Notes: generated by a model from the sequence alone, not told the origin. A stretch of DNA of 64,000 bases from Croceivirga sp. (GCA_028284935.1 JANQQQ010000016.1:86730-150729), one strand, 5' to 3'; numbered from the stretch's first letter, positions 6,532 to 35,626 are shown. Numbers and translations: made by a program.

Positions 6532-6577
6532 GAAAATTAAGCTTTAGGTAAACTTACGATAAAATTCCTGAGTAGGT

Positions 6578-7426
6578 TTGGTCGAATATTTGACAAAACA
6601 TTACAAAAAGTTTATCGTAAAGACTATAATTTTGGATGATGACAATCTGACCAAGATGATTGAACAATCAAAAAGACTGGGATTGGTGCTTTCCGGTGGA
6701 GGTATTCGGGGCATGGCCCATATTGGATTGATCAAAGCCATGCAAGAGCGTAACATTGAAGCTGACTCGATTGCCGGATCCAGTATTGGTGCTTTGATAG
6801 GAGCCCTATATGCCAATGAAACCTCAACGGATGAAATGCTACAGTTTTTCAAGGAAACACCGTTGTTTAAATATAGTTTTTTTGCGTTCGGGAAGCCTGG
6901 ATTCATAGATACCGAAAGGTATGTTCCTATTCTTAAAAAGCACTTTTCAGAGAATTCCTTTTCTTCTCTAAAGAAGCCTTTATTTGTGGTAGCCACTGAT
7001 ATGCAGAACGGAACCGAACGGGTTTTTAAAGAGGGGGAACTCATTCGACCTTTATTGGCTTCGGCCGCTTTGTCCCCCGTATTCAGTCCTGTTGTAATCG
7101 ATAATGTTTTATATGCGGATGGGGGAATCATGAATAATTTTCCGAAGGAATATCTGGAGAAGGATGCTGATTTTATCATCGGGAGCAACGTCTCCATCGC
7201 CGGGAAGTTGGACAAGAAGGACTTGCGTAATTCCATACAACTGGCTGCACGAATTACAGGCTTGATGGTGTATGCTTCAAGCCATGAGAAGTTGCAACAA
7301 TGTGATTTGAAAATAGAACCCTTGGATCTTGAGGGAATCGGTGTCTTGGACAAAAAGGGCATAGAAAAGGCCTACACCATCGGATATGATGCCGCCAGCT
7401 TTGCCCTAGATGAAATTATGACCTAA
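6578..7426 (+). CDS. Patatin-like phospholipase
   Basis: LSGGGIRG, GSSIG (GxSxG) and DGG motifs. True start may be ATG 6656. Confidence 0.9.
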   Translation: MVEYLTKHYKKFIVKTIILDDDNLTKMIEQSKRLGLVLSGGGIRGMAHIGLIKAMQERNIEADSIAGSSIGALIGALYANETSTDEMLQFFKETPLFKYSFFAFGKPGFIDTERYVPILKKHFSENSFSSLKKPLFVVATDMQNGTERVFKEGELIRPLLASAALSPVFSPVVIDNVLYADGGIMNNFPKEYLEKDADFIIGSNVSIAGKLDKKDLRNSIQLAARITGLMVYASSHEKLQQCDLKIEPLDLEGIGVLDKKGIEKAYTIGYDAASFALDEIMT

Positions 7427-8472
7427 ACATCATCATAATCCACTTTTAATGTTGGCGATTTTGCGTGTGCCTGGCAGGTTAGAATCAAACCTTCGGCAAC
7501 TTCGCTGTCCGTCAATATTTGGTTTTTGACCATTTCTGCTTCTCCTTCCACAATTCGGGCAATACAAGAGCTACAAACCCCACCTTGGCAAGAATACGGG
7601 GCATCAATGTCATTTTTAAGAACAGCATCCAAAACCAATTCTTTCCGGTCCATGGTAAACTCTTGCTCCTCATCATCCAAGACCACCGTTACCTTGGTTT
7701 GTCCCTCTAGCCCTTCAACTTCACTGGAGTCAGCATCCGACGAGGTAAATAGCTCGAACAAGATATCCTCTTCGGGCACACCATTGTTTTTTAGGGAATT
7801 GGATACTGTGTCAATCATTTGTTCTGGACCGCAGAGATAAAAGGCATCGAAATCAAATTCCTTGAATTTGTTCTTCACTACCAAATTGACCGTTGCATTT
7901 TCAATGCGACCAAAAAGGCAATCCGCTTCATTGCTACGACTGTAGACCCATTGAACAAAAAACCGATTGTTATATTTTTCTTGCAGTTGAAGCAGCGCAT
8001 TACGGTACATGGTCCCTTCGGGATTCTGATTTCCGAAAATCAATACGAATTGATTTCCCTCGTTCGATTCCAACACGGTTTGGACAATGCTCATAATTGG
8101 AGTGATACCACTTCCTGCGGCAAAGGCTGCAATGGTTTTTGGAGTTCCATTGTTTTCAAACACAAATCGACCTTCTGGCGGCATGACTTCCAAAGTATCT
8201 CCCGCAGAAATTTCTTCATTGGCATATTTTGAAAAAGTACCGTTTGGCATCTTTTTTATTCCTACCGTCAGCTTTCCCGATGAGGGTGATGAAGAAATTG
8301 AATAAGCCCGTCGCACCTCCTCGCCGTTCAACTGCTTTTTTAGGGTAATGTACTGCCCAGCCGTAAATTGAAAGGTTTCCTTTAATGAATCAGGAACATT
8401 GAAAGTCAAGGCCACCGAATCCGGTGTCAACGAATCAACGGATAAAACCTGTAGTGCGTGAAAATCACTCAT
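7423..8472 (-). CDS. Ferredoxin-NADP reductase-type oxidoreductase with C-terminal 2Fe-2S domain (PaaE-like)
   Basis: RAYSISS, AAGSGITP, YLCGP and YSCQGGVCSSC...LTCQ motifs. Confidence 0.9.
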   Translation of the reverse strand: MSDFHALQVLSVDSLTPDSVALTFNVPDSLKETFQFTAGQYITLKKQLNGEEVRRAYSISSSPSSGKLTVGIKKMPNGTFSKYANEEISAGDTLEVMPPEGRFVFENNGTPKTIAAFAAGSGITPIMSIVQTVLESNEGNQFVLIFGNQNPEGTMYRNALLQLQEKYNNRFFVQWVYSRSNEADCLFGRIENATVNLVVKNKFKEFDFDAFYLCGPEQMIDTVSNSLKNNGVPEEDILFELFTSSDADSSEVEGLEGQTKVTVVLDDEEQEFTMDRKELVLDAVLKNDIDAPYSCQGGVCSSCIARIVEGEAEMVKNQILTDSEVAEGLILTCQAHAKSPTLKVDYDDV

Positions 8473-8486
8473 AGCAAAAATTTTTG

Positions 8487-8494
8487 CAAAGCTA
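8487..8494 (-). promoter_or_regulatory. Bacteroidota -7 promoter element for the oxidoreductase
   Basis: TAGCTTTG on the minus strand matches TAnnTTTG, 14 nt upstream of the ATG. Confidence 0.6.
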
Positions 8495-8530
8495 AGACTT
8501 CGCCCATCGAAAAAACATACCTAAGATTAT

Positions 8531-8557
8531 TATGCATAAGAAAATTATGTATATTGC
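8531..8557 (+). promoter_or_regulatory. Putative PadR autoregulatory operator overlapping a -7-like element
   Basis: TATGCATAA-GAAAA-TTATGTATA inverted repeat (8/9 match), overlapping TATATTGC. Confidence 0.5.
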
Positions 8558-8603
8558 ATGGAGTTAAGAATGTTCCCATCAATGGTTGAACGAATTTGAA
8601 ATT

Positions 8604-8954
8604 ATGCCAAACGCTAAATTGTATAAGGGAAGTCTCAATACCATTATCCTAAAGTTATTGGATGAACAAGGCAAAATGTATGGTTATGAGATAACGCAAA
8701 AAGTCAAAAAATTGACCAAAGGGGAACTAAATATCACCGAAGGCGCGCTATACCCGGCACTGCACAAGTTGGAAAAGGATGGTCTCTTGGATGTGGAGGT
8801 CACCAAAGTAGGCAATAGAATTCGAAAATATTATAAGCTCACAGGGCTCGGCGAGAAGGAAACCGCCAATCGCTTGGTAGAGTTGGAAAAATTTATTCGA
8901 AATATGCAGCAACTGGTCAATCCAAAATGGAGTTTACTATGGATAAAAGCTTGA
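8604..8954 (+). CDS. PadR-family transcriptional regulator
   Basis: KGSLNTIILKLL...MYGYEI...EGALYPALHKLEKDG...RKYYKLT. ATG 8604 preferred over TTG 8586. Confidence 0.92.
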   Translation: MPNAKLYKGSLNTIILKLLDEQGKMYGYEITQKVKKLTKGELNITEGALYPALHKLEKDGLLDVEVTKVGNRIRKYYKLTGLGEKETANRLVELEKFIRNMQQLVNPKWSLLWIKA

Positions 8955-9613
8955 ATTCCGATCAAATCGGAACAATAGAAAAACACCTAGATTCAAAAAA
9001 CTTAAGTCACGTTGATTTGAGGTATGAGGTCATTGATCATATTTCGGAGGGCATACGGGAATCAATGGAAATATGGGGCATCAGTTTCGAAGACGCCTAT
9101 CGTAGGGAAGTGGAAAAATGGCATTATGATTTAAGAACGGGATCAACACGTTTAATGGGTTTAAAATGGGCCGTTCCCAATTTGGTAGTCGAAAAATGCA
9201 TTAGACTGGTAAGGGAAATTTGTTTAAAATCCCTCATAATTGCTTTCATCCTTACTGCATTTGGGTTCTATTTTTCGGATGTGTTGACCCCAATGTTACT
9301 AAAGTATCTCAACCTAACTTTTGGTATTTTCTATTTTTTGGGTTTTTTATTGGTGCTATTTTTCTATTTTGAGATTTGGAAAACCAAAATAAAAAGTACG
9401 TATAGTTTCCTTTTCAGAATTAATGCTGTAGGCTTTGGACTTTTTTATCTGTTTTTCAATCCAGTGTTGGTGAGCATTCTAAGTTTCGATATTGGGGGAA
9501 AACTAAATTATGCTTCCCTTTTTGGTAATACGTTCTTTTTGACTTTTTCCTATTTCTATCTCCAACTTTTTAAAAACCATATGTTAACGGCTAAAGATAG
9601 TAGGTTGATATGA
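8927..9613 (+). CDS. PadR-associated membrane protein of unknown function
   Basis: Soluble N-terminus (DLRYEVIDHI) followed by about 4 hydrophobic segments. Overlaps padR. Confidence 0.7.
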   Translation: MEFTMDKSLNSDQIGTIEKHLDSKNLSHVDLRYEVIDHISEGIRESMEIWGISFEDAYRREVEKWHYDLRTGSTRLMGLKWAVPNLVVEKCIRLVREICLKSLIIAFILTAFGFYFSDVLTPMLLKYLNLTFGIFYFLGFLLVLFFYFEIWKTKIKSTYSFLFRINAVGFGLFYLFFNPVLVSILSFDIGGKLNYASLFGNTFFLTFSYFYLQLFKNHMLTAKDSRLI

Positions 9614-9693
9614 GGTTCTTACACTTGCGAACCGATTGACCTATGTAACAAAATTTCAATTCTTACTACTAACCTAAAAAATTGTTCCAACCA

Positions 9694-11163
9694 ATGTTCA
9701 AGAGATTTATCAATCTTCAATGGAAATCCTTTTTCCGTTCCGCTTCTTTTGGGAAAAGCATGGGGATTAAGGTTTTTATGATTTTCATGGGCCTTTATGT
9801 CCTGGCTTCCCTAGGAATATTGGGAGGCTCTTTGTATTTCATCCTAAGAAAACTAGTGCCAAGCCAAGGTCCCATGTGGGTATTGAGCCAATTTTTGGTG
9901 TATTGGGTGTTGGTAGAACTTTTCTTTCGCTATTTCATGCAAAAACTGCCCATCATGGATGTAAAACCGTTATTGATCAACAATATTCCCAAATCCAAAA
10001 TTGTCAATTACATTTTGGGCAGGTCTGTTGTTTCCGGTTTCAATCTGTTTACTTTGGTCACCTTTATACCTTTTGCCATTGTCTTGATCATAAAAGGGTA
10101 CCCAACATTAAATGTAATGGTATGGCTGTTGGCGATGGCACTTATTGCGCTTTGCGCCAATTTCTTGAACTTTTTGATCAATAAAAGTGATGTTGCCCTG
10201 GGATTGATTATTGGGACATTGGCCCTGTTCTGGGGACTGGAATATTTCGGGGTCATTTCCATTCAACAGCTTTTTGGACCTATTTTCCACGCGCTGTATG
10301 CGTATCCTATTACTGTTTTAGTGCCATTGGCCGTTCTAGGGCTACTCTATTTTTTAAATTTCAACTACCTCAAAAAGGTGCTATACCTTGATGGGGCACT
10401 TAAAGGAAAAGCCAAAGAGGCCAAAGCCACCGATTTATCATGGACAAAACGTTTTGGGGAAATGGCGCCTTTTCTTCAGCTTGATTTGAAATTGATTTGG
10501 CGCAATAAGCGAACCAAGACCCAAGTGTGGATTTCGTTGCTCTTTGTTTTTTACGGACTCATCTTCTACACCCAAGAAATTTATGCCAACATGGTGGGCA
10601 TGCACGTCTTTTTGGGGATTTTTATGACGGGAATCTTTCTGGCCAACTTTGGGCAGTTCATTCCTGCGTGGGATAGTGCCTATTATGGCATGATGATGTC
10701 GCAGAATATTCCACTTAGAAAATACTTGGAATCCAAAGCGCTTTTAATCACCGTGAGTGTGGTGGTGATGTTCTTTTTGACCATTCCTTACGTCTACTTT
10801 GGATGGAAAATATTCGCAGTGAATGCGGCCTGCGCTATTTACAATTTGGGAATCAATATTCCCGTAATCCTATACTTTGGCTCCTTCAATAAAAAGCGAA
10901 TTGAACTCGACCAAAGTCCTTTCGGCAACATGCAGGGTACCAGCGCCGTGCAATTCTTAATTATGTTACCTGTTTTGGGCGCTCCCATTATTTTGTTCTC
11001 CTTGCTGAATTGGTTGGTTTCTTTTGAAGTGGCCATTACGGTATTGGTGGGCTTGGGAATTTTAGGATATGCCTTTAAAAGCAAATTATTGGATGCAGTA
11101 ACCCAACAATACGCCCATAAAAAACATGTAATGCTCCAAGGGTTTCAGCAAAAAAATGGATAA
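9694..11163 (+). CDS. ABC transporter permease-like multi-TM protein (DUF5687-type)
   Basis: About 12 hydrophobic segments, MFKRFINLQWKSFFRS N-terminus, directly upstream of an ABC ATPase. Confidence 0.75.
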   Translation: MFKRFINLQWKSFFRSASFGKSMGIKVFMIFMGLYVLASLGILGGSLYFILRKLVPSQGPMWVLSQFLVYWVLVELFFRYFMQKLPIMDVKPLLINNIPKSKIVNYILGRSVVSGFNLFTLVTFIPFAIVLIIKGYPTLNVMVWLLAMALIALCANFLNFLINKSDVALGLIIGTLALFWGLEYFGVISIQQLFGPIFHALYAYPITVLVPLAVLGLLYFLNFNYLKKVLYLDGALKGKAKEAKATDLSWTKRFGEMAPFLQLDLKLIWRNKRTKTQVWISLLFVFYGLIFYTQEIYANMVGMHVFLGIFMTGIFLANFGQFIPAWDSAYYGMMMSQNIPLRKYLESKALLITVSVVVMFFLTIPYVYFGWKIFAVNAACAIYNLGINIPVILYFGSFNKKRIELDQSPFGNMQGTSAVQFLIMLPVLGAPIILFSLLNWLVSFEVAITVLVGLGILGYAFKSKLLDAVTQQYAHKKHVMLQGFQQKNG

Positions 11164-11184
11164 TCAACACAACGTCATTACGAT

Positions 11185-11880
11185 ATGATTAAAATAGAAG
11201 ACCTTTCAAAAAAATACGGTGCCAACACTGTCCTAAACATTGAGTCCCTTGAAATTCCAAAAGGACAAAGTTTTGGTCTTGTGGGGAACAATGGCGCCGG
11301 GAAAACTACACTTTTCAGTTTGTTGTTGGATTTAATTCCTCCCACAACGGGCCAAATCAAAAACAATGAAGTTCAGGTGAATAAAAGCGAAGCTTGGAAG
11401 CCTTTTACGGCGGCCTTTATTGACGAAAGCTTTTTGATAGGTTATTTGACCCCCGAAGAGTACTTTTATTTCATTGGAGAGCTACGAGGGAGGAACAAAG
11501 CGGATGTTGACGCCCTTTTAGCGCAATTCGAGGACTTCTTCCACGGTGAAATATTGGGGCAAAAAAAATACCTGCGCGACCTTTCCAAAGGGAACCAAAA
11601 AAAAGCTGGAATCGTTGCCAGTTTTATCGGCAACCCTGAAGTGGTGATATTGGACGAACCTTTTGCCAACCTAGACCCCACCACGCAAATTCGATTGAAG
11701 GCCATTATCAAGGAATTGGCCGCAAAAGAAGAGGTAACGGTTTTGGTCTCCAGTCATGATTTGATGCACGTTACTGAGGTCTGTGAACGTATCGTCGTAT
11801 TGAACAAAGGAGCGATTGTAAAAGATATTGAGACTTCTGAAAAGACCCTTAAGGAACTCGAAACCTTTTTCGCAGGGTAA
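11185..11880 (+). CDS. ABC transporter ATP-binding protein
   Basis: GNNGAGKTT, LSKGNQKK signature, ILDEP and SSHD motifs. Confidence 0.95.
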   Translation: MIKIEDLSKKYGANTVLNIESLEIPKGQSFGLVGNNGAGKTTLFSLLLDLIPPTTGQIKNNEVQVNKSEAWKPFTAAFIDESFLIGYLTPEEYFYFIGELRGRNKADVDALLAQFEDFFHGEILGQKKYLRDLSKGNQKKAGIVASFIGNPEVVILDEPFANLDPTTQIRLKAIIKELAAKEEVTVLVSSHDLMHVTEVCERIVVLNKGAIVKDIETSEKTLKELETFFAG

Positions 11881-11891
11881 AAATCCATGGT

Positions 11892-12959
11892 TTGAGTTGG
11901 CGCCAAATATTCACGTTTTTCTTTTTGGGTTTTTGCTTTGCAGAGGCTCAAAATGAGGTGACTCAGGTAGAAAAACAGTTGATTCAGGGTGTGTTGACCC
12001 AATTTCCGGACAACACCCATTTTGCCATTGCATTGGTCCAGGACGGGCAGACCTCTTTCTACGGATGTGTTAAAAAACCAAACGGCCTCGTTGAAGTGGA
12101 CAACAGGAAAAACTTATTTGAAGTAGGCTCTATATCAAAAGTTTTTACTGCCACCTTGCTGGCAAATGCCGTATTGGAAGGGAAAGTTGAATTGAACGCC
12201 TCCATAAATGACCATTTAGGCTTTGACATAAATAATGGATATGAGTTCACTTTTTTACAATTGGCCAACCATACTTCCGGATTACCCCGAATGCCTGGAA
12301 ATTTTATATTTCACACCAATGATGCCCAAAACCCCTATAAGGATTACGATGAAAATGCATTAATAGAGTTTTTGGAGAAGTATGTAACATTGCTCAATTA
12401 TGAAAAAAGGGAATATGAGTATTCAAACTTGGGCGCTGGCTTTTTGGGGTATCTCTTGACGAAAATAAATGACCAGTCCTATCATACATTATTGGAATCC
12501 AAAGTGTTTCAAAAACTTAGAATGGTTGATAGTTATGGTTATGTTCCAAGAAACCATGAAAATTTGGTTAAAGGACGTAACGAAAAAGGGGAAGTTACTT
12601 CAAATTGGGACTTGAACATACTGGCCGGTGCCGGAGCAGTGGTATCCAATGTTGAAGATATGTCAAAATTTATTCTGGCGCAGTTTGATATTTCGGACAA
12701 AGCATTGGTATTAACCAGGGAAGAAACCCATAAAATGGATGAGCATAGCGCAATCGCATTGGGTTGGCACATTAACAAAAAAGTAACTTCCGAACCTATT
12801 TTTTGGCATAATGGGGGAACGGGGGGCTATCGGTCTTGTATGGCCATCAACATAGATAATAAACGTGGTGTAATCGTCTTGTCCAACGTCTCTGCTTTTC
12901 ATAAAGAATCATCGAAAATTGATAATTTATCCTTTGATTTATTGAAAACGCTCAACTAA
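11892..12959 (+). CDS. Serine hydrolase, AmpC-like family, exported
   Basis: EVGSISK (SxxK), YSN and HNGGT motifs, N-terminal signal peptide. Confidence 0.88.
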   Translation: MSWRQIFTFFFLGFCFAEAQNEVTQVEKQLIQGVLTQFPDNTHFAIALVQDGQTSFYGCVKKPNGLVEVDNRKNLFEVGSISKVFTATLLANAVLEGKVELNASINDHLGFDINNGYEFTFLQLANHTSGLPRMPGNFIFHTNDAQNPYKDYDENALIEFLEKYVTLLNYEKREYEYSNLGAGFLGYLLTKINDQSYHTLLESKVFQKLRMVDSYGYVPRNHENLVKGRNEKGEVTSNWDLNILAGAGAVVSNVEDMSKFILAQFDISDKALVLTREETHKMDEHSAIALGWHINKKVTSEPIFWHNGGTGGYRSCMAINIDNKRGVIVLSNVSAFHKESSKIDNLSFDLLKTLN

Positions 12960-13013
12960 TTTAAATTAGGGCATACCTTATCCATTCATTCCTACAGTAA
13001 GGCCTTCTATTTT

Positions 13014-13066
13014 CAGTTATGCTACTTAGGAAAGATGTTGACTTTTGAAGCTTCGTTTTACATCCA
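13014..13066 (+). repeat. Left copy of direct repeat (degenerate duplicate of the sprE 5' end)
   Basis: 13028-13066 matches 17831-17869 at 37/39 nt. CAGTTAT also aligns, at a constant offset of 4803. Confidence 0.92.
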
Positions 13067-13152
13067 AAGTTTCAAATTAAGAAGCGATTGCAAAAGACGT
13101 TGTAACCTCAGCGGAAACGTTGAAGGAATTGGAAAGCTTCTTTTCTGGCCAA

Positions 13153-13407
13153 TTAAGGAAACACCTCATAGCAATCTTCATCGTTTCCTGTTGGGGGACA
13201 GTACGAGGCCTTGCAGGCACCACCCTCCCTTTCTTCCGCCAATTCAATACATCTTGATTCTGAAACAAAAGCATGATTGGTAAAACTAAAGGGTTGACCT
13301 GTACGGAAACCACCACAGCTAATACTACAACTACCTAATTCATCCTCGGAAGAACAGGCGTAAAAACATAATAGTATGGAAAAAAACAGAAGCCTAAGAA
13401 ATCGCAT
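13153..13407 (-). CDS. Small Cys-rich lipoprotein of unknown function
   Basis: Lipobox FYA-C18 followed by acidic SSEDE, with six further Cys in 84 aa. Confidence 0.75.
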   Translation of the reverse strand: MRFLRLLFFSILLCFYACSSEDELGSCSISCGGFRTGQPFSFTNHAFVSESRCIELAEEREGGACKASYCPPTGNDEDCYEVFP

Positions 13408-13423
13408 GATATTTGGTTATTGG

Positions 13424-14005
13424 TTATGGTTGTTTCATTATACATTGTGCAGGTTCCATCAAACTGGCTTGAAGCTTTTTGCTCAATATTTCGTAATCGA
13501 AAAAAGTGCCCAGATCATCCGTGCCAAATTTCTCTTCTCCTACCTTGTTCGAAGAGAAATAGACTTTGATATAGGAGATGGGATGTTGTGCAAATAATTT
13601 CAACTGTTCTTGATTTACCTTGTAGAAAGGTTTATTGATTTCCGTGGTCACGGGAAGCGTAAATTTTCCAAGCAAGGTCCTGTCCGGGTGCAAGGTTTCA
13701 ATAGTGCCATTTTCAAATTGTATAATCAACGGGTTGTCCTTCATGATGTCGATTCTTCTTCCCAACTCCCTAACAAGTACTAGGGACAGATAATAATTCT
13801 CGGCGGACCTGACAAAATTGGCCGAAGCTGCCTGACTGAACTTTGAGAACAAAGGTTTAGGTTTTGTGGCCTCAATAATCTTTTCTTCGGTAAAGTGTTT
13901 GTTCGCCCTGCGCATGCCCTTTGAAGAATTCTTGCACTTTTGTCCTATCCCAGAAGCAAAAACGAACAGTATAAATAGAAGGGTTATATGTTTTGTTGTG
14001 CTCAT
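13424..14005 (-). CDS. Exported hypothetical protein
   Basis: 193 aa, signal-peptide-like N-terminus, overlaps the upstream gene by 4 nt (ATGA-type coupling). Confidence 0.75.
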   Translation of the reverse strand: MSTTKHITLLFILFVFASGIGQKCKNSSKGMRRANKHFTEEKIIEATKPKPLFSKFSQAASANFVRSAENYYLSLVLVRELGRRIDIMKDNPLIIQFENGTIETLHPDRTLLGKFTLPVTTEINKPFYKVNQEQLKLFAQHPISYIKVYFSSNKVGEEKFGTDDLGTFFDYEILSKKLQASLMEPAQCIMKQP

Positions 14006-14523
14006 AACGTCATTGTAATTTTTAAGTTCACCGAATTTGTTTGAGGAAAAATGTCCAGATGGACCGGCATGTATATTCCTGCGGATTTATCCTTTAGGGC
14101 AATGGACTTCCATTTTGGGACCAATATCCCAATAAGTGCCCCAACCGCGGCACCGGAACCGGCCATGGCCAAATAAAACCCAGCCGTCTTTTCCCGGGGC
14201 TGCCCTAATGGATCGGTATCCAAATCGATGAGTAGTGCCGAAAGGGACAAGGTTGCAGTTCCAAATAGTGCACCCTCCACCAGATGATTTCCCTTTGGGA
14301 TTTTGATAAGTGAAATATGTTGTAGGGGAAGCTCAGCTTCCTTGTTGCTTTTTAAATGAATGTATTGGGCCATTATGGGGCCTATTTTTAGATCACTGAC
14401 CCTAATCATCCGGTGATCTTTCAAAAAGATTTTAGCGTTCCGGTAATGGCCATCCTGTTCTTTTTGCGCCAAAACATTAAGTGCGATCAAGAGAAAAATG
14501 AAAATCGTAATGGTATCCCTCAT
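14002..14523 (-). CDS. Exported hypothetical protein with glycine-zipper-like hydrophobic hairpin
   Basis: Signal peptide from ATG 14523 (MRDTITIFIFLLIALNVLAQ). Contains GALFG...GSGAAVGALIG. Confidence 0.72.
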   Translation of the reverse strand: MRDTITIFIFLLIALNVLAQKEQDGHYRNAKIFLKDHRMIRVSDLKIGPIMAQYIHLKSNKEAELPLQHISLIKIPKGNHLVEGALFGTATLSLSALLIDLDTDPLGQPREKTAGFYLAMAGSGAAVGALIGILVPKWKSIALKDKSAGIYMPVHLDIFPQTNSVNLKITMTL

Positions 14524-14641
14524 GAAATTCTGTATGATAACAGCCCCTTTTGAAAAAGAAAGGCCATATTGATGAGTAAGGCATTCTGCAAATGGCAATG
14601 GGAATGGATAAAGCTATAAAGTACCTTGTTGAAGGAACAGC

Positions 14642-14673
14642 ACTTATAGTTCAATTTCTTCTACTTATAGGTC
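14642..14673 (-). promoter_or_regulatory. Tandem direct repeat, putative AraC binding site
   Basis: ACTTATAGTTC (14642) and ACTTATAGGTC (14663), 21-bp period, upstream of a -7-like TAGCTTTA (14609-14616, minus strand). Confidence 0.6.
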
Positions 14674-14695
14674 GATGAAGTCTTTTTAAATCGGA

Positions 14696-17548
14696 CTAAG
14701 CCTTATACTGGGACGGAGGGACCCCGAAGGTCTCATTAAAACATTTGGAAAAGTAGCCCACGTTCTCAAACCCTACTCTAAAAGCAATTTCAGAAACCGT
14801 ACCTACATTAACCTTTAATAATTGTGCAGCTTTTTTTAATCGTATTAAGCGGATAAATCCCGATGGTGAATAGCCGGTATGGGCTTTTAGTTTTCGGTAT
14901 AACTGTGATTGGCTCATATTCATGCAAGATGCAAAAGAGCTGACGTCAAAACTGGAATCATCTAAATGCTCTTCAACAATTTGTAGGGCACGTTGAATGA
15001 TTCTTTGGTGTTCCGTGGTATATTTTAACCGTTTGATAGGTAGTGTATTGGGATTGTTCCAGGTTTTGGCCAAATTGGTGGTCAACACCTGTATTTTTGA
15101 TTCAAATTGTTCCCGCGCGTCTCGTATTTGAGCAAAATGGCGGTAGCACAATACGGTTAAGCCAAGAATTGCTAAGGCATAAACACCATAGGCCCATGAA
15201 GATTGCCAATAAGGAGGGGAAATAATGAATACTAGAGAAGCTTTTCCTAGTCCATCATTTGTCGTTTTTACATTTAAAGTATAGGTTCCCGAACTTAAAT
15301 TCCCCATAGTAATGTGTTGGTTTTTACCCAGCTGATGCCATTCTTTATTTGTCCCGATGAGTTGATATTCATAGTGGCTATTTGCCAAATCCGAATAGTT
15401 CAATTCCGCAAAAGAGAAGGTCATGTTGTTTTGGTCATGAAGAAGCCTCAGGGTATCCACTCTGGAAATGTGTTTTTTTGGGAAGTCTGGAGCGGGAATA
15501 CGATTACTTTTTTCATCAAGTAGTTGAAAGTCGGTAAACACGATTGGAGCGCTTTGTGTGAGCTGACCAAAAGCAAGTGGGTCAAAAGAATTGAAGCCAT
15601 TAATTCCTCCAAAAAAGAATTCCCCATTAGCACTTTCAAAATAGGCCCCTGCGTTGAATTCGCTGTCTTGAAGGCCATGGTGAACATCAAAATGCCTGAA
15701 TTTTTTTGTAGTCTGATCAAGTACGCTCATGCCTGCATTGCTTGTAAACCAAATTCGGTTTCTGCCATCGACCAATACGCCATAAATGACATCATTCAAA
15801 AGTCCACTGTTAGCGGTAAAGTGTTCGAACATCCCTGAGGTGACGTCCAATCGATTGAGTCCTCCCCCATAGGTGCCGACCCAGATATACCCTTTTTTGT
15901 CCTCGGCAATACTGGTGATGTATTTATGGCTCAAACCTTGCGGGCCTTCGGAATCGAATAAATATCTTTTTATTACACCTGTATCGGTATCCATGCAATT
16001 GAGCCCATCTTTGGTTCCAATCCATAGCAAACCCTTTTTATCAAAAAACAACTTATTAATGGAATTGGCGGAAAGGGATTTGTCTTTATCGGCAGCGAAT
16101 AAAAACCTTTCGGAAGCATTCGTTACAACATTGAATTTCCATAATCCATAACTGCCAATCCAAAGGTTGTTGTCCGCGTCGGCAGCCAAGGAGCGTACTT
16201 GGATTATGGAATCGGTTTGCCCTGGTAAAGTATAAAAACGTTCGAATTTGTTTCTTTTCACGTCATACCTTTTCAAGCCGTTTAGCCAAGTACCCGCCCA
16301 AATAGCTCCTGTTGAATCTTCACAAATAGACCGAATGGTATTTAAAGGGGTGGTCGAAATTTCTTCTGTGTCGTTCATTAATAAGGTCACCTTTTCTGTT
16401 GCCCTATCCATGAGGTTTAGTCCTCCATGAGTACCCACCCATAGTCTGTTTTTGCTATCCAACAGAATGCTGCGAACGGTGTTCTGACTTAACGTATTGG
16501 TATTGCCAAGAGAATGTTTATAATGGTTGAACCGAGGTTGACGTGGGTCATACTTGTTGACACCCCCAACATAGGTGCCTACCCACACTATTCCATCAGG
16601 GTCTTGGTACAAAGACCTTATGGAATTTGAGTTGAGGCCCGTAGTATTGTAAGGGTCATGGAGTATGCTTTTAAAAGAATGGTCAAAACGGTTAAAGAGA
16701 ACAAGTCCACTATTTCTTGTGCCTATGAATAGATGATTTTTCGTGCCAATGGCAAGAGACAACACCCCGGTATTGGAAAGAAGAGGACGGTTTTTATCAT
16801 AAAACTTGGAGGATTGCAATTTATTACTATTAAGGCTGTAGGTAAGAAGCCCTCTAGCGTTGCCGATCCAAAGGCACGATGAATCCAACACCATAGAAGC
16901 TGGATATGGGTTTTTAAGGGACTCGTGAAGAACACTTGTAAATGAATGGTTATGAATCTTTATTTTTTCTAAGCTCTCGGTACCCAAAACCCAAAAATGG
17001 TTTTTATCATCAGCTACTATAGACCATATCACATGGTTCCCTTTTGCTTTTTCAGAAAGGTATCTTTTAAAACCCTTGTCTTTGTCAAAAGTGTTGAGTC
17101 CGTCCATGGTACCCACCAATAAGGCCCCATCGCCATTGATGCATAGGGCATTCACTATATCGTTCGATATACTATGTGCCATACTTGGGGAATGTTGGTA
17201 TCTGGTAAATGTTTCGGTTTCTGGGTTGAAGTAATTGAGCCCATTGTTTGTTCCCACCCACAAAAAGCCATCTTCATGTTCCAATATGGTGTTGATATAG
17301 CTGCTGGAAAGACTATTGTTATTGTTTGGTTGATGTCTGTAAATGGTAAAGGTGGAACCATCATATTTATTGAGGCCGTCTTCTGTTCCAAACCACATAA
17401 AACCACGACTGTCCTTAATAATGCAGGTTACCGAAGACTGAGACAGTCCTTGGGCCATAGTGAGATGTTCAAATCTTGAGAACATATTTTGACCGTGAAC
17501 CAAAGAATGGATCACAAAGAAAAACAGGATGGTTGGGTGCACTCTCAT
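14696..17548 (-). CDS. Beta-propeller/Y_Y_Y sensor-TM-AraC regulator (HTCS-like, lacking kinase and receiver domains)
   Basis: Signal peptide, repeated D..G.LW.GT..GL units, Y_Y_Y-like segment (YEYQL...LSSGTYTLNVK), TM helix, then the AraC HTH (MSQSQLYRKLK...VSEIAFRVGF...YFSKCF). Confidence 0.9.
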   Translation of the reverse strand: MRVHPTILFFFVIHSLVHGQNMFSRFEHLTMAQGLSQSSVTCIIKDSRGFMWFGTEDGLNKYDGSTFTIYRHQPNNNNSLSSSYINTILEHEDGFLWVGTNNGLNYFNPETETFTRYQHSPSMAHSISNDIVNALCINGDGALLVGTMDGLNTFDKDKGFKRYLSEKAKGNHVIWSIVADDKNHFWVLGTESLEKIKIHNHSFTSVLHESLKNPYPASMVLDSSCLWIGNARGLLTYSLNSNKLQSSKFYDKNRPLLSNTGVLSLAIGTKNHLFIGTRNSGLVLFNRFDHSFKSILHDPYNTTGLNSNSIRSLYQDPDGIVWVGTYVGGVNKYDPRQPRFNHYKHSLGNTNTLSQNTVRSILLDSKNRLWVGTHGGLNLMDRATEKVTLLMNDTEEISTTPLNTIRSICEDSTGAIWAGTWLNGLKRYDVKRNKFERFYTLPGQTDSIIQVRSLAADADNNLWIGSYGLWKFNVVTNASERFLFAADKDKSLSANSINKLFFDKKGLLWIGTKDGLNCMDTDTGVIKRYLFDSEGPQGLSHKYITSIAEDKKGYIWVGTYGGGLNRLDVTSGMFEHFTANSGLLNDVIYGVLVDGRNRIWFTSNAGMSVLDQTTKKFRHFDVHHGLQDSEFNAGAYFESANGEFFFGGINGFNSFDPLAFGQLTQSAPIVFTDFQLLDEKSNRIPAPDFPKKHISRVDTLRLLHDQNNMTFSFAELNYSDLANSHYEYQLIGTNKEWHQLGKNQHITMGNLSSGTYTLNVKTTNDGLGKASLVFIISPPYWQSSWAYGVYALAILGLTVLCYRHFAQIRDAREQFESKIQVLTTNLAKTWNNPNTLPIKRLKYTTEHQRIIQRALQIVEEHLDDSSFDVSSFASCMNMSQSQLYRKLKAHTGYSPSGFIRLIRLKKAAQLLKVNVGTVSEIAFRVGFENVGYFSKCFNETFGVPPSQYKA

Positions 17549-17616
17549 GGGCGCGTTAAATTACTAGTATTGAGAATATTGTATTTTAAAAATAAGACAA
17601 AAAGCCATTTTGTTCA

Positions 17617-17776
17617 AAACCCCCTTTTTATTGGGTATCCAAAAGAGTAATTGGACAATACACAACTACCCATAAACATGAAGAGAAATCAAAAAACTTC
17701 TCATTCAACTTATGCCAACTAGGTTGGGTAGATGGAATGCTGTGATAGGTCAGGAAAGCCTTTTAAAAGGGGGTTT
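17617..17776. repeat. Nested inverted repeats in the divergent intergenic region
   Basis: AAACCCCCTTTT / AAAAGGGGGTTT (12 bp) enclosing CTACCCA / TGGGTAG and TGAAGAGAA / TTCTCATTCA. Confidence 0.6.
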
Positions 17777-17816
17777 CCATTTTAGTAAAAGCCATTATAA
17801 TATTTAGCCTTTTTTC

Positions 17817-17869
17817 CAGTTATCTTAACTAGGAAAGATTTTGATTTTTGAAGCTTCGTTTTACATCCA
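17817..17869 (+). repeat. Right copy of direct repeat (functional sprE 5' end)
   Basis: Contains the sprE TTG start at 17848. Matches 13014-13066. Confidence 0.92.
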
Positions 17870-20400
17870 TACTTCCAGTTTTTGGACTACTACTGTTGGC
17901 ATTGGGCTGTTCTACCAAAAAAGACGCCTTTATCAACCGCAATTGGCATGCCCTCAACACCAAGTTCAATGTACTTTATAATGGCAATATCGCCTTTGAG
18001 CAGGGACGGGAAGAGCTCAACGCATCCTACCGTGATGATTTTTGGGAAGTGCTTCCGGTGGAGCGTCTCGAAGTCACCGATGAAATCAAGCTGGATTCGG
18101 AAGACAACAACCCCAACTTTGAACGTGCTGAAGAAAAGGCGACCAAAGCCATTCAGAAGCACAGCATGAACATTAAGGACGAAGAGCGAAATCCGCAAAC
18201 TGATGAGGCTTTCCTCTTACTGGGCAAGGCGCGTTATTTTGACCAACGTTATATTCCGGCTTTGGAATCCTTCAATTATATCCTTAGAAATTATGTGGAG
18301 AGCAATAAGTTGAATGAAGCGACCATTTGGCGTGAAAAGACCAATATGCGATTGGACAATCCTGAGATTGCCATAAAAAACCTAAAGCGACTTTTAAAGT
18401 TTGAGGAATTAAGGGATCAGGAATATGCAGATTCCCATGCCGTAATGGCGCAGAGTTACCTAATGCTCAATGCTCCAGATACTGCCATACAACAACTAAA
18501 AGTAGCGCAGGCCTACACAAATAAAAACGAAGAGCGGGGGCGCTATCTCTTTATCATTGGTCAGTTATACAATCAACTAGGCTTTAAAGACAGTGCCAAC
18601 TATGCCTTTGATAAGGTCATTGCCTTAAACCGAAAGTCCCCAAGGGTGTATATGATCAATGCCCATATCAAAAAAATTCAGAATACCGAAGTCACCTCCG
18701 AAAACCAAGAATTCCTTTTGGAATACCTTACCGATTTGGAAGAAAACCGGGAGAATCGACCTTTTTTGGACAAGATTTATCATCAGATAGCGAATTACCA
18801 TCTGGAAACGAGATCGGATAGTACCGCCTTGGTCTATTATAACAAGTCGCTCCGTGCTACGCAACAGGACCGGAAGTTAAATGCCAGAAATTATGAGACC
18901 CTTGGAGAGTATTTTTTTAATCTCAAGGAATACAAAAGAGCTGGAGCCTATTACGATAGCACCTTGACCAATTTGGCGGAGAACACCAAGAAGTTCCGTC
19001 GCATCAAGAAGAAGTTTGACAATTTGGAAGACGTGATCAAATACGAGGATATTGTTCAATATGCAGATAGTGTAGTTACGGTTTACCAAATGCCCGAGGA
19101 CGAGCGCATTGCCTATTTTGAAGATTATATCCAGCAGTTAAAAGAAGAAGCTGCAGCGCTTGAAGCTCAAAAGGAGAAAAAAGCCAATGCAGGCTATGCT
19201 GCTTTTGCACAGAGTCAAGGAGGTAAAGAAAATAAGGGCAAGTTCTATTTCTATAATGTCACCAGTTTGGGTTATGGCAAAACTGATTTTAAAACCCGAT
19301 GGGGAGAACGTCCGCTTGAAGACGATTGGCGATGGAGCAACAAGACCAGGGTGGCACCATCCGAAGCAACCGGAGAATTGGTGGCAGCCAATGATAGCGT
19401 TGCAATTGTATCTGACGAAGAGCGGTATTCAGTAGCATACTATATGGACCAATTGCCCACAGACCCCAAAGTTGTTGATAGTCTGGCAGGGGAACGAAAT
19501 TTTGCCAATTATCAATTGGGCTTGATCTACAAAGAAAAATTCAAGGAAAACCTTTTGGCCGCAGGAAAATTGGAAGCGGTCCTTAAAGGAAATCCTGAAG
19601 AACGATTGATACTACCTTCAAAATATAACCTTTATAAAATCTATCAAGAAACCGGAAGTCCCTTGGCTGAAGGCATACGACAAGATATTTTGACCAATCA
19701 TGCCGATAGTCGTTATGCTACCATATTATTGAATCCCGATGCAGTTTTGGCCGATGATGAACAAGGGCCGGAAGCCCGATATAATGAGCTGTTCAAAAAA
19801 TACCGGCAGCAAGAATTTTTACGGGTCATCACCGAATCACAAGACTATATCAATCGTTTTACCGGCGACCCCATTGTGCCCAAATTTGAACTCCTTAAGG
19901 CAAATGCCATTGGAAGGTTACAAGGCTTTGAACCTTACAAGGAGGCTTTGAACTACGTGGCGCTGACCTACCCCAATAGTCCCGAAGGTAAAAAGGCGGA
20001 ACAGATTATTGCCGAGCAACTGCCCAAGTTGGAGTCCAAGGAATTTTCTCCAGAAGAGGGGAGTACGGGCACTGGAAATTGGAAGGTGGTTTTTCCTTTT
20101 AAAATCCGTGACGACGAGAACGCATTGAAACTGCTTAAACGGCTGGACGATGTGATAAAGGATTTACGGTACAAGAATATTGCATCCAAGGACATTTACA
20201 ACCTGGAAAACCAGTTTGTGGTGGTACATGGCTTCAAATCAAAAGACTTTGCACTAGGCTTTTCGGAGCTTATAAAAAAGAATAAGGACTATCGCATCCA
20301 GGATGAGAATTTTGTAGTTTTGTCCAAGAACTACCAGACCATCCTTGTACACAAAAATTTAGACGCTTACAAAGCACAATTGTTAACCCCAAAACCGTGA
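17848..20400 (+). CDS. sprE: Gliding motility / T9SS TPR lipoprotein SprE (PorW family)
   Basis: Lipobox LALG-C, STKKDAFINRNWHALNTKFNVLYNG, TPR-like helices and WGERPLEDDWR. Sits upstream of bactofilin and the atp operon. Confidence 0.8.
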   Translation: MKLRFTSILPVFGLLLLALGCSTKKDAFINRNWHALNTKFNVLYNGNIAFEQGREELNASYRDDFWEVLPVERLEVTDEIKLDSEDNNPNFERAEEKATKAIQKHSMNIKDEERNPQTDEAFLLLGKARYFDQRYIPALESFNYILRNYVESNKLNEATIWREKTNMRLDNPEIAIKNLKRLLKFEELRDQEYADSHAVMAQSYLMLNAPDTAIQQLKVAQAYTNKNEERGRYLFIIGQLYNQLGFKDSANYAFDKVIALNRKSPRVYMINAHIKKIQNTEVTSENQEFLLEYLTDLEENRENRPFLDKIYHQIANYHLETRSDSTALVYYNKSLRATQQDRKLNARNYETLGEYFFNLKEYKRAGAYYDSTLTNLAENTKKFRRIKKKFDNLEDVIKYEDIVQYADSVVTVYQMPEDERIAYFEDYIQQLKEEAAALEAQKEKKANAGYAAFAQSQGGKENKGKFYFYNVTSLGYGKTDFKTRWGERPLEDDWRWSNKTRVAPSEATGELVAANDSVAIVSDEERYSVAYYMDQLPTDPKVVDSLAGERNFANYQLGLIYKEKFKENLLAAGKLEAVLKGNPEERLILPSKYNLYKIYQETGSPLAEGIRQDILTNHADSRYATILLNPDAVLADDEQGPEARYNELFKKYRQQEFLRVITESQDYINRFTGDPIVPKFELLKANAIGRLQGFEPYKEALNYVALTYPNSPEGKKAEQIIAEQLPKLESKEFSPEEGSTGTGNWKVVFPFKIRDDENALKLLKRLDDVIKDLRYKNIASKDIYNLENQFVVVHGFKSKDFALGFSELIKKNKDYRIQDENFVVLSKNYQTILVHKNLDAYKAQLLTPKP

Positions 20401-20404
20401 ACAA

Positions 20405-20836
20405 ATGTTCTCAGACAAACAAAAACCCCGACCTATGGAAAACTTTGGCGGACAGCCCAACAGAATCGAAAAGAATACCGTAATCAAAGGTAACATCACT
20501 TCTGAAGCTGATTTTAGAATAGATGGAAAACTGGAAGGAAATGTAAAAACTTCTGGTAAAGTAGTTATTGGTAAAGATGGATTGATCAAAGGAAAAGTGG
20601 AATGTGTAAATGCCGATATTGAAGGCAACTTCAACGGAGAGCTTTATGTATCGGAATTACTGTCCCTAAAAAACTCTGCAAAGATTGAGGGCACGGTCAA
20701 CGTGACCAAATTGGCCGTTGAACCAGGAGCAACCTTTAATGCCTCATGCACTATGGGCAAAGGGACTGCCCCGGCAACGGGAAACACCCATAAACTACAG
20801 CCTTCAAAAGTGAATGAGCCGGCAAAAGTCTCCTAA
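20405..20836 (+). CDS. Bactofilin (polymer-forming cytoskeletal protein)
   Basis: IEKNTVIKGNI...FRIDGKLEGNV...IGKDGLIKG...LAVEPGATFNASC. Confidence 0.9.
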   Translation: MFSDKQKPRPMENFGGQPNRIEKNTVIKGNITSEADFRIDGKLEGNVKTSGKVVIGKDGLIKGKVECVNADIEGNFNGELYVSELLSLKNSAKIEGTVNVTKLAVEPGATFNASCTMGKGTAPATGNTHKLQPSKVNEPAKVS

Positions 20837-21047
20837 GAAGAACAACGGCTTAAAAAATGGTGTTGCCTTAACTGGCATTGCCTTCGAAATGGGCATTATT
20901 ATATACCTTGCCGTAAAAGGGGGCAATTGGATGGATGCGCATTATGGAACCGAAAAAAAATATTTTACCGTGATAGCCACACTTTTAGGTGTGGCTATTG
21001 CTATTTGGGTAGTTTTGCAACAATTGAAACGACTCAATAATTCATGA
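20814..21047 (+). CDS. AtpZ/AtpI-family membrane protein
   Basis: Two TM segments (GIAFEMGIIIY...GNWMD), first of the atp-associated genes. Confidence 0.85.
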   Translation: MSRQKSPKKNNGLKNGVALTGIAFEMGIIIYLAVKGGNWMDAHYGTEKKYFTVIATLLGVAIAIWVVLQQLKRLNNS

Positions 21048-21436
21048 AGAAATTACCCTTTCGCTTCACTTTAGTGCTGCTAATTGCCTTGCTACTTGCT
21101 TTCTTTCTTCACTTTTTTGCATTGAAGAATTTGAACCTACCTCCTTTTGCTGATATGTTGGTTCCCTCCTACATCACTAATTTCTTGCTGGCTACTGCTA
21201 TTTTTATGGGCCTTTTTTATGCACGAAAAAAGCTGAAAAATGCGCTGGGCTTTTTATTTATGGGGGGCAGCCTAATAAAGTTTGCGGTATTTTTTGTTGT
21301 TTTTTATCCTTCGTATAGAGCAGATGGAGAAATTGTACGAACAGAATTCGCTGCTTTTTTTATCCCATATTTGACAGCACTTGTACTGGAGACCTATTTT
21401 GCTTCAAAAATGTTGAATCAGATTGCTGATTCTTGA
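21044..21436 (+). CDS. ATP synthase-associated 4-TM protein (AtpI-like)
   Basis: Four hydrophobic segments, located between atpZ and atpB. Confidence 0.7.
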   Translation: MKKLPFRFTLVLLIALLLAFFLHFFALKNLNLPPFADMLVPSYITNFLLATAIFMGLFYARKKLKNALGFLFMGGSLIKFAVFFVVFYPSYRADGEIVRTEFAAFFIPYLTALVLETYFASKMLNQIADS

Positions 21437-21504
21437 TTTTTACAACGGCTTTTAAATGACTAAAAATAAAGCAATAAAGCTTTTTTCCTTTTGAGGGAAA
21501 GACT

Positions 21505-21512
21505 TACATTTG
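21505..21512 (+). promoter_or_regulatory. -7 promoter element of atpB
   Basis: TACATTTG matches TAnnTTTG. Supports a start at ATG 21546 rather than TTG 21510. Confidence 0.65.
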
Positions 21513-21545
21513 CACCGATTTTTAAGGACCGTTAGTTCTAGCGCA

Positions 21546-34120: not shown

Positions 34121-35137
34121 ATGAAAATCATCGTCCCAATGGCAGGCCGTGGTTCTAGATTACGGCCACACACCCTAACCATTCCCAAACCTTTAATTCC
34201 CGTTGCAGGGAAACCCATTGTACATAGATTGGTCAGCGACATTGCCAAAGTCTTAGGTGAACCCATAGAAGAAGTAGCCTTTATTTTGGGAGATCCAGCT
34301 TTTTTCGGTGACGATATTGTGACCAGTCTTGAAAAACTGGCGCATGAATTGGGCGCAAAAGCCAGTATTTATCGCCAGTTAGACCCTAAGGGAACCGGAC
34401 ATGCCATTATGTGTGCCGAGCCTTCACTCTCCGGTCCTGCCGTAATTGCGTATGCGGACACACTTATACGTGCTGATTTTAATCTGGACAAAGGAGCAGA
34501 TAGTGTTATTTGGACCAAAAGGGTGGAGAATCCAGAAGCTTATGGGGTGGTCAACCTCAATGAACAGGGTCAAATTAAGGAATTGGTTGAAAAACCCACG
34601 GAGTTTGTGAGCGACCAGGCCGTAATTGGCATTTATTATTTTAAGGATGTAGGGGTGTTGCGAAATGAGTTGCAATTCGTCTTAGAAAATAACATCATCC
34701 ATGGTGGGGAATATCAAATCAATGATGGCATTAAACGCATGATGGCAGACGGTAAGGTTTTTGTGACGGGTAAAGTAGATGAATGGATGGATTGCGGCAA
34801 TAAGAAGGTAACCGTGGAAACCAACCAGCGTATGCTAGGCTTTTTGGAAAAAGACGGAGAGGAATTAATTGCGCAATCAGTGAAGAAGGAAAATGCCAAT
34901 ATCATTGAACCCTGCTTTATAGGCGAGAATGTAGTATTGAAGAATACAACTATTGGACCCTATGTTTCCATTGGTGCGGATACCGTTATAGAGAACTCAA
35001 CCGTTAAAAATAGCCTAATCCAAAGCAATAGCGTCATTAAAAATGCTAATTTGGATAATGCCATGATAGGCAACCATGTACGATATGATGGCAACTTTGA
35101 AACCATTAGTATTGGGGATTACTCGGTACTGGAATGA
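34121..35137 (+). CDS. Sugar-phosphate nucleotidyltransferase
   Basis: MAGRGSRLRPHT...KPLIPVAGKP, with a C-terminal hexapeptide-like region. Confidence 0.92.
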   Translation: MKIIVPMAGRGSRLRPHTLTIPKPLIPVAGKPIVHRLVSDIAKVLGEPIEEVAFILGDPAFFGDDIVTSLEKLAHELGAKASIYRQLDPKGTGHAIMCAEPSLSGPAVIAYADTLIRADFNLDKGADSVIWTKRVENPEAYGVVNLNEQGQIKELVEKPTEFVSDQAVIGIYYFKDVGVLRNELQFVLENNIIHGGEYQINDGIKRMMADGKVFVTGKVDEWMDCGNKKVTVETNQRMLGFLEKDGEELIAQSVKKENANIIEPCFIGENVVLKNTTIGPYVSIGADTVIENSTVKNSLIQSNSVIKNANLDNAMIGNHVRYDGNFETISIGDYSVLE

Positions 35138-35618
35138 GGACTTTGGAAAAGGAAGCAAAGTTGCCCAGAATAGAACTTAAGGGAAATGATGAGGAAACGT
35201 TTAGTGGTATTGGGATGTTCACTAAGTTGTTGTATGGGGGTTTTCTGCCAAGAAGGCCTCAATCTTAATCATTTATATATCCAGTGGGTCGTTACTCCAG
35301 AAATTGTCGATAGTGATTATTTGGGGCTTAGACCATATCGCATTGGGTTTAAAAAAAGTGATGAAGACCGTATCATTTCTTTCAGAAAATCCGATGATAA
35401 TGTAATTTATGACTATTCACCGTCGAAGTTGGTATGCCCATCCCCGCCCTCTAATTTGGGTGCAGAAAAATGGGTGGTAATTCCTGATTTAAAAAGGCTG
35501 GAACATCTTTTTTTCGATGAAAAAGGGGTAATTATATATTCCTCAACATATGAAATTGCCGATGTTAACCGAAAAGTTTTGAAATTAAAACGAATAAGCG
35601 AGTACCTTAATGAGGACT
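35133..35618 (+). repeat. 10-bp direct repeat bounding a 476-bp insertion
   Basis: AATGAGGACT at 35133-35142 and 35609-35618. Upstream GTAC aligns at the same 476 offset. Confidence 0.7.
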
Positions 35619-35626
35619 GGGAATAA
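35186..35626 (+). CDS. Exported hypothetical protein
   Basis: 146-aa ORF with a signal-like N-terminus and no recognised motif. Confidence 0.65.
   Translation: MMRKRLVVLGCSLSCCMGVFCQEGLNLNHLYIQWVVTPEIVDSDYLGLRPYRIGFKKSDEDRIISFRKSDDNVIYDYSPSKLVCPSPPSNLGAEKWVVIPDLKRLEHLFFDEKGVIIYSSTYEIADVNRKVLKLKRISEYLNEDWE

Follow-up and report, generated by a model that had tools for sequence, protein, structure and literature searches.

A direct repeat at the start of sprE in Croceivirga as the probable scar of recombination that stacked two alternative alleles

The 64,000-nt stretch of a Croceivirga sp. genome analyzed here (GCA_028284935.1 JANQQQ010000016.1:86730-150729; hereafter, the window, with positions counted from its first nucleotide) carries a composite locus between two conserved genes, one for an ATP-binding cassette (ABC) transporter ATPase and the other, the gliding/secretion gene sprE, for a periplasmic lipoprotein of the type IX secretion system (T9SS). 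Between them lie a gene for an exported serine hydrolase and a 4.8-kb insert with four genes, here denoted module A, and the insert is bounded by two copies of the 5' end of sprE (Table 1). The original prediction, made from the window sequence, took these copies for attachment site (att)-like repeats of an integrating island that was either mobilized in trans or excisable by recombination between the repeats. We compared the locus with its counterparts in related genomes: SprE was located in 37 of 41 of these, up to 18 kb of upstream sequence was fetched for 16, and gene order was established by tblastn.

Table 1. Features of the ABC ATPase-sprE locus in the window
Feature	Position	Strand	Basis or remark
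DUF5687 membrane protein gene, conserved left flank	9682..11163	+	PF18940, E=6e-186; syntenic in all relatives
Full-length ABC transporter ATPase gene, left anchor of hotspot	11185..11880	+	PF00005
Exported serine hydrolase gene, beta-lactamase/CubicO fold ("Blac"), module 1	11892..12959	+	PF00144, E=5e-41
Resident hydrolase-sprE spacer, orphaned sprE promoter block and sprE codons 1-7 (TTG 13045)	12960..13066	+	Colinear with L062 spacer
Relic of last ~27 codons of ABC ATPase gene, left inner end of insert	13069..13152	+	VSN*EAIAKDVVTSAETLKELESFFSGQ
84-aa cysteine-rich lipoprotein gene, module A gene 4	13153..13407	-	Open reading frame (ORF) with signal/lipobox
193-aa exported protein gene, module A gene 3	13424..14005	-	No family match
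173-aa exported/membrane protein gene, module A gene 2	14002..14523	-	ORF open to 14598
950-aa sensor-regulator gene, module A gene 1	14696..17548	-	Pfam: Reg_prop beta-propellers, Y_Y_Y, transmembrane helix, AraC helix-turn-helix
Regulator promoter region and lineage-specific filler	17549..17812	.	Promoter partly conserved with G009/G011/G013
Right repeat copy	17813..17877	+	Working sprE promoter-proximal block and codons 1-10; block conserved genus-wide
sprE/porW, T9SS periplasmic lipoprotein gene, right anchor of hotspot	17848..20400	+	NF052312, 848 bits, E=7.8e-255

The ABC ATPase is 88-96% identical at the amino acid (aa) level in relatives, where its gene always lies upstream of sprE, and the hydrolase is intact, with the SISK and YSN motifs present. 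All four genes of module A are on the minus strand, as had been claimed, and the accompanying claim that they include no recombinase gene is borne out by Pfam and NCBIfam scans, which detected no recombinase domain in them; the same scans, extended to the neighboring genes, returned no recombinase, transposase or relaxase. Pfam finds no HisKA, HATPase (kinase) or receiver domain in the sensor-regulator, whose closest homologs, encoded in the congeners G009, G011 and G013 and on the contig L069, are only 70-72% identical. Homologs of the sensor that share this short architecture are widespread in Flavobacteriaceae, at ~45-52% identity. None of the three small module A proteins belongs to a family in Pfam or NCBIfam. 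The 84-aa lipoprotein is 65-94% identical in the same G009, G013, G011 and L069, and the 193-aa exported protein is 74-77% identical in four relatives; the start of the 173-aa protein was chosen from the ATG used by relatives. The G+C content inside the insert (0.38-0.44) equals that of the flanks. The filler upstream of the regulator gene contains an inverted repeat (17617-17640/17753-17776) with 24-nt arms that are 79% complementary and 112 nt apart.

A repeat search assigned the two boundaries of the insert to a two-copy family (13010-13074 and 17813-17877; 55 of 65 positions identical, offset 4803 nt), and no further copies exist in the whole 4.23-Mb genome. Recomputation reproduced the previously noted core, with 37 matches over the 39 nt of 13028-13066 and 17831-17869, as well as the alignment of CAGTTAT at the same offset. 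None of 100 dinucleotide shuffles gave one extra match at ≤3 mismatches, and none is expected by chance. The run of perfect identity between the copies is 24 nt long. The right copy does hold the live TTG start of sprE (17848), which opens an 850-aa ORF with a lipoprotein signal and the N-terminus MKLRFTSILPVFGLLLLALGC. The left copy begins 50 nt past the hydrolase stop codon and reads LKLRFTSKVSN*, as reported; however, its KVSN* tail is not decayed sprE but the start of a remnant of the ABC ATPase C-terminus.

Comparison of positions 17770-17850 with the orthologous positions in 16 relatives revealed a block of ~80 nt that is conserved genus-wide upstream of sprE, whichever gene precedes it, with the pattern TATA(A/C)T..TTTTTnAGTTAT..TAGGAAAGAT..TTGAAGCT. 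In this block, the TATAAT/TATACT motif lies ~47 nt upstream of the sprE start and TAGGAAAGAT ~10 nt before the TTG. The block presumably comprises the sprE promoter and leader; a sigma-70-style promoter/terminator scan, the model of which is ill-suited to Bacteroidota, gave no signal above that of shuffled sequences. The orphan left copy departs from the block at two positions that do not otherwise vary (TTATGC, GATGTTG), and the divergence between the two window copies is approximately that of orthologous promoters in sister species. The orphan promoter, at about 12990-13045, points antisense into the inserted operon.

Directly inside the left copy lies a relic of the 3' end of an ABC ATPase gene. 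A tblastn search of the 64-kb window with 21 ABC proteins matched their residues 205-231 to 13069/13087-13149 (E down to 1e-5), where positions 13069-13149 translate as VSN*EAIAKDVVTSAETLKELESFFSG and the stop codon is mutated from TAA to CAA. The joint at 13066-13069 thus connects sprE codon 7 with ABC codon ~204, and the sequences on its two sides are unrelated to each other. The ABC 3' end of G009, from 61 nt inside the gene, and the adjoining lipoprotein gene give an unbroken alignment to 13092-13458 (85%, E=1e-119), and the equivalent region of G013 aligns at 88%. Because the inner left end of the insert is an ABC relic colinear with the ABC/lipoprotein junction of relatives, the insert is a chunk of the homologous locus; an ABC 3' end is exactly what is expected beyond the lipoprotein gene in a chunk of the module A allele, and it was found there. 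The C-terminus encoded by the relic is of a foreign type, TSAETLKELESFF, whereas the full-length ABC ATPase of the window has the clade type, TSEKTLKELE, which is also carried by G015 and G008, both without the hydrolase. Nucleotide identity to G009/G013 reaches 85-88% across the lipoprotein gene and the ABC relic but only 65-80% in the rest of module A; either constraint differs along the module, or the module is a mosaic.

An empty site with a single copy, such as the original prediction anticipated, is present in metagenome contigs L062-L067, L068 and L072, all with the order ABC-hydrolase-sprE. In L062-L067, the genes run DUF5687-ABC-hydrolase-sprE-bactofilin, with 85 bp between the hydrolase gene and sprE, and in L068 and L072, this spacer is 83-84 bp. 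The order ABC-hydrolase-sprE was also obtained by tblastn for Croceitalea vernalis (L079) and L100, and in L071, the ABC and hydrolase genes are followed, after 125 bp, by a truncated 569-aa ORF, the identity of which as sprE is unchecked. In blastn comparisons, window positions 9687-13074 match L062 5796-9183 (81.8%) and positions 17811-21514 match L062 9117-12823 (84.5%). The two matches overlap in L062 and, therefore, the 67 nt at 9117-9183 are single in L062 and double in the window. In a multiple alignment, the left copy carries on from the L062 hydrolase 3' end and spacer in base-by-base register as far as ...ACATCCA (codon 7), and the similarity is lost beyond this point. Given this colinearity, the original sprE promoter and start are those in the left copy, cut off from the gene when 4736 unique nt and one repeat were inserted. 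No relative was found to carry both copies without the four genes, and all 16 relatives searched have a single copy (16/16). Thus, the view that 4.8 kb was inserted at the very start of sprE, relative to relatives, stands, whereas the att-bounded integrating island does not, as discussed below.

None of the 19 genomes sampled from the genus yielded a hydrolase ortholog above 45% identity. In a collection of 5.8 billion proteins, orthologs with 81, 67, 55 and 53% aa identity were identified in L062, L068, L072 and L071, respectively; the respective genes lie between the ABC gene and sprE in L062, L068 and L072, and after the ABC gene in L071. In L069 (12482-13219) and L068 (386-1096), the ABC ATPase has a C-terminal extension, and its gene overlaps the start of the hydrolase gene, which suggests translational coupling of the two genes where the hydrolase is old.

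The content of the ABC-sprE interval varies extensively among the relatives. It is empty (about 90-100 bp) in six congeners, and in G008, it consists of a single 233-aa gene. Module A occurs at the same locus in four congeners: it is the only content of the interval in G013, it precedes another set of four genes, module B, in both G009 and G011, and it follows a hydrolase gene in L069. In G015, G001, G004 and G007, the interval contains module B with other genes. In G009, G013 and G011, the stop codon of the lipoprotein gene adjoins that of the ABC gene, there is no hydrolase, and blastn-short detects one copy of the sprE 5' end. The four closest relatives of the window according to the SprE tree (G000, L062, G015 and G008) each have a different interval content. 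Between G011 and G004, the flanks are 95-97% identical, and the two genomes differ by module A, starting from the exact ABC stop codon. Module A, with an extra copy of a 123-aa gene, occupies 6533-11668 of the G011 locus (L038), compared with 11555-11718 of the G004 locus (L037); in addition, a 235-aa gene is swapped for an unrelated 241-aa gene that ends ~50 nt upstream of sprE (L038 14131-14948 versus L037 14182-15402). These differences look like clean homologous replacements, and the regulator tree joins G011 with G009, in conflict with the SprE tree.

In a broader sample, 80 genomes of Flavobacteriaceae (Flagellimonas, Croceitalea, Maribacter, Arenibacter and others; loci L075-L154) keep the ABC gene upstream of sprE, with a gap that ranges from 87 bp to >6 kb. 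Many Flagellimonas, Croceitalea and Croceivirga genomes have a gap of 87-120 bp; in others, it extends up to >6 kb, with unrelated cargo. The ABC-sprE gap (11880-17848 in the window) is a long-standing insertion hotspot throughout Flavobacteriaceae. When 102 loci were tested against their own sprE 5' and ABC 3' ends, a second copy was clear in the window only.

Metagenome-assembled genome contig L069 (JANQOD010000089; SprE 76.5% identical at the aa level) has a second stacked arrangement, ABC-hydrolase-module A-sprE, in which the hydrolase is 46% identical to that of the window. The 113-nt spacer between its hydrolase and lipoprotein genes holds a decayed relic of the sprE 5' end, with a 36-nt internal deletion, that reaches ~codon 11. 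This relic significantly matches the upstream region and poly-T codons of the L069 sprE itself (0/1000 shuffles), whereas its match to the window relic is not significant (175/1000 shuffles); neither is that of a putative ABC tail in L069 (606/1000 and 312/1000 shuffles). Both relics contain GGCCAA, as opposed to GG(C/T)TAA in intact ABC genes, which is a one-base hint only. We read L069 as a probable independent additive event with a different breakpoint.

Taken together, the structure of the locus, the empty site, the two relics and the repeat-free module A of the congeners make it probable that the repeat is the scar of a recombination event that stacked two alternative alleles, ABC-hydrolase-sprE' and 'ABC-module A-sprE; that module A was the incoming partner we infer, as we do the precise recombination pathway and the way in which the DNA was transferred. 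Under this scenario, alternative modules would be exchanged between the ABC gene and sprE through homologous recombination within these two conserved flanks. The original allele of the window lineage would have been ABC-hydrolase-sprE, and DNA would have been received from a relative in which the ABC gene and sprE were separated by the genes for the lipoprotein, the two exported proteins and the propeller/AraC sensor. The incoming piece would have begun at donor ABC codon ~204 and reached into the promoter and 5' end of the donor sprE. The latter, a sequence conserved genus-wide, would have served as a homologous anchor through which the right end of the piece recombined with the resident sprE, and the left end of the piece would have been joined illegitimately just past resident sprE codon 7. 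This could have occurred either through homology-facilitated illegitimate recombination (HFIR) of a linear fragment or through a Campbell-type single crossover of the same fragment once circularized, two routes that sequence alone cannot separate. The outcome would be additive, with the hydrolase retained and the four genes gained, and would leave two scars, namely, the orphan sprE promoter with seven codons and, beside it, the ABC 3' relic; the right repeat would be the sprE promoter and start that came, or recombined, with the incoming module. An ordinary double homologous exchange in the ABC gene and sprE would have replaced the hydrolase. Such exchanges evidently take place, as the comparison of G011 with G004 and the conflict between the regulator and SprE trees show, and the additive outcome is the rarer of the two. 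RecA-type deletion between the copies, which share the 24-nt perfect run, may regenerate the L062-type allele, although rarely. A short, weak repeat elsewhere in the window (35126-35626; AATGAGGACT and neighbors) might mark another such scar.

Several observations weigh against this scenario. No donor was found, the nearest homologs of module A being 70-72% identical at the aa level (regulator searched against the 5.8 billion proteins), and exact-sequence look-ups placed the window hydrolase and regulator each on one contig only. Sliding identity in 200-nt windows against G015, G008 and L062 showed no crossover discontinuity in the ABC gene or sprE; with no visible crossover in sprE, the direction of the event is argued from parsimony. 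The coding parts of the two repeat copies are identical at 22 of 22 positions, which is more than expected for two lineages, unless the crossover occurred inside the repeat. Finally, the gene order and the sprE' relic of L069 imply that the additive event is either recurrent or old and homogenized by gene conversion. Recurrence would be expected if selection favors keeping the hydrolase and if repeats escape subsequent homologous deletion only when they are short.

A first alternative is the same kind of scar with the opposite polarity. The structure is symmetric and either direction yields the observed order, so that the resident allele could have been ABC-four genes-sprE, with incoming ABC-hydrolase DNA, including the sprE promoter and seven codons, anchored by homology in the ABC gene or DUF5687 and joined at resident ABC codon ~204. 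It is also the case that, within its own clade, module A is known from the window only, so that the hydrolase need not have been the resident. However, the divergence of the hydrolase from its orthologs in L062, L068, L071 and L072 is in step with that of the backbone (81% identity where SprE is 93% identical, 67% at 85% and, with L069 included, 46-55% at ~76%), the ABC-hydrolase tract has no block of elevated identity to L062 or any other sampled lineage, and the full-length ABC 3' end is of the clade type shared with G015 and G008, whereas the relic is of another type. These features favor module A as the incoming module, and we regard the opposite polarity as unlikely. An ancient stacked allele, formed by tandem duplication of the segment from the ABC 3' end to the sprE 5' end or by early unequal exchange, would account for the same gene order and the sprE' relic in a congener as distant as L069, as well as for the GGCCAA common to both relics; the simple alleles would then have arisen by repeated deletion between direct repeats, which at ABC/'ABC or sprE'/sprE regenerates exactly the clean alleles seen, and the window copies would have been kept alike by gene conversion. 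Against such antiquity, the L069 relic matches its own sprE rather than the window relic and ends at codon ~11 instead of codon 7, the window relics are 12-28% diverged, far too little for unconstrained sequence predating the split from L069, and many independent deletions would be required, so this origin seems quite unlikely. That the window and L069, apparently independently, gained module A at sprE codons 7-11 could also be taken to mean that the ~80-bp promoter/start block of sprE is a preferred capture site, at which cassettes would be captured in a sequence-directed manner, without a recombinase or with one acting in trans. We consider this very unlikely; the alternative to a capture site is survivorship of rare illegitimate events.

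The island of the original prediction would be a discrete integrative element with its att core in the sprE 5' end and a site-specific recombinase encoded elsewhere. The flanking direct repeats, the regenerated target gene end, the one-copy empty site and the insertions of two lineages within sprE codons 7-11 all fit such an element. Nevertheless, the proposal that the repeats are att-like sites of an island mobilized in trans or self-excising is contradicted by the ABC gene relic inside the left boundary, which leaves no discrete element ends, by the repeat-free module A of three species (G009, G013 and G011), and by the breakpoint in L069, which is not identical and whose relic is own-lineage. 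There is, furthermore, no recombinase, the genome contains only the two copies of the core, the composition is host-like, and the copies are only 85% identical, with the similarity of orthologous promoters. The island model is, accordingly, already largely refuted, and we consider it highly improbable. The flanks of the insert are core genes in all relatives. A transposon, an integron and a phage were rejected because the insert has none of their genes, lacks terminal inverted repeats at its boundaries and is host-like in composition, as was an insertion sequence or composite transposon, with no transposase and a duplication that is 65 nt long and degenerate. A mis-join of the assembly at the repeat is barely credible: the repeats, at 65 nt and 85% identity, can be told apart and do not exceed the length of a read, the contig measures 394 kb, the same gene order occurs in the independent assembly of L069, and a mis-join would not produce two decayed relics at the left junction.

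The locus offers a natural case in which both parents and the recombinant can be seen, that is, a hydrolase-only allele, a four-gene-only allele, and a stacked allele with relics of both flanking genes. It illustrates how accessory genes can be added, not swapped, at a hotspot without a mobile-element enzyme, and it identifies the interval between the ABC gene and sprE as variable across Flavobacteriaceae. For annotators, it is a caution that direct repeats alone, even where they regenerate the end of a gene, do not amount to att sites.

The repeat is a known kind of recombination scar at a new place and reveals no new mechanism. HFIR has been described in natural transformation or conjugation of Acinetobacter baylyi, Streptococcus pneumoniae, Pseudomonas stutzeri and Escherichia coli (PMC3240628), and cases in which the old gene is kept and a new module is added have been reported (PMC3240628, PMC5361080). 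As in HFIR, the insert is anchored by homology at one side (the sprE promoter and 5' end) and seems to be joined at a non-homologous point on the other (sprE codon 7 to ABC codon ~204), no dedicated recombinase need be invoked, and genes are added beside the anchor. Unlike in those systems, the event is here inferred from a natural scar, the "foreign" DNA is an alternative allele of the same locus, with a relic of the other flank, and the locus has undergone a net gain of DNA, with what looks like a short duplication, where insertion plus deletion would be usual. In the Vibrio cholerae type VI secretion system (T6SS) effector-immunity clusters and in Rhs/contact-dependent inhibition (CDI) loci, the old gene, an immunity gene in the case of the T6SS clusters, is sometimes retained and displaced, leaving gene-end relics; HFIR has been proposed for such displaced orphan modules, although double homologous replacement is commoner (PMC5361080). 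The present locus resembles these orphan modules in having a variable module beside a conserved gene, a retained old gene and gene-end relics, but its cargo consists of a serine hydrolase, a sensor-regulator and three small exported proteins instead of toxin/immunity pairs, and its scar duplicates a 5' end with the promoter, not a 3' end, and forms a single layer, not an array. A Campbell-type insertion likewise leaves the region of homology as direct repeats flanking the insert, and the joint between codon 7 and codon ~204 would then be the point of circle closure; however, the homology here spans only ~65-110 nt, and the circular intermediate is hypothetical. With integrase-driven islands that target tRNAs or gene ends, the locus shares the direct repeats, the regenerated gene end and the one-copy empty site, but it differs from them in having no integrase and no conserved ends, and in that the same cargo is repeat-free in relatives.

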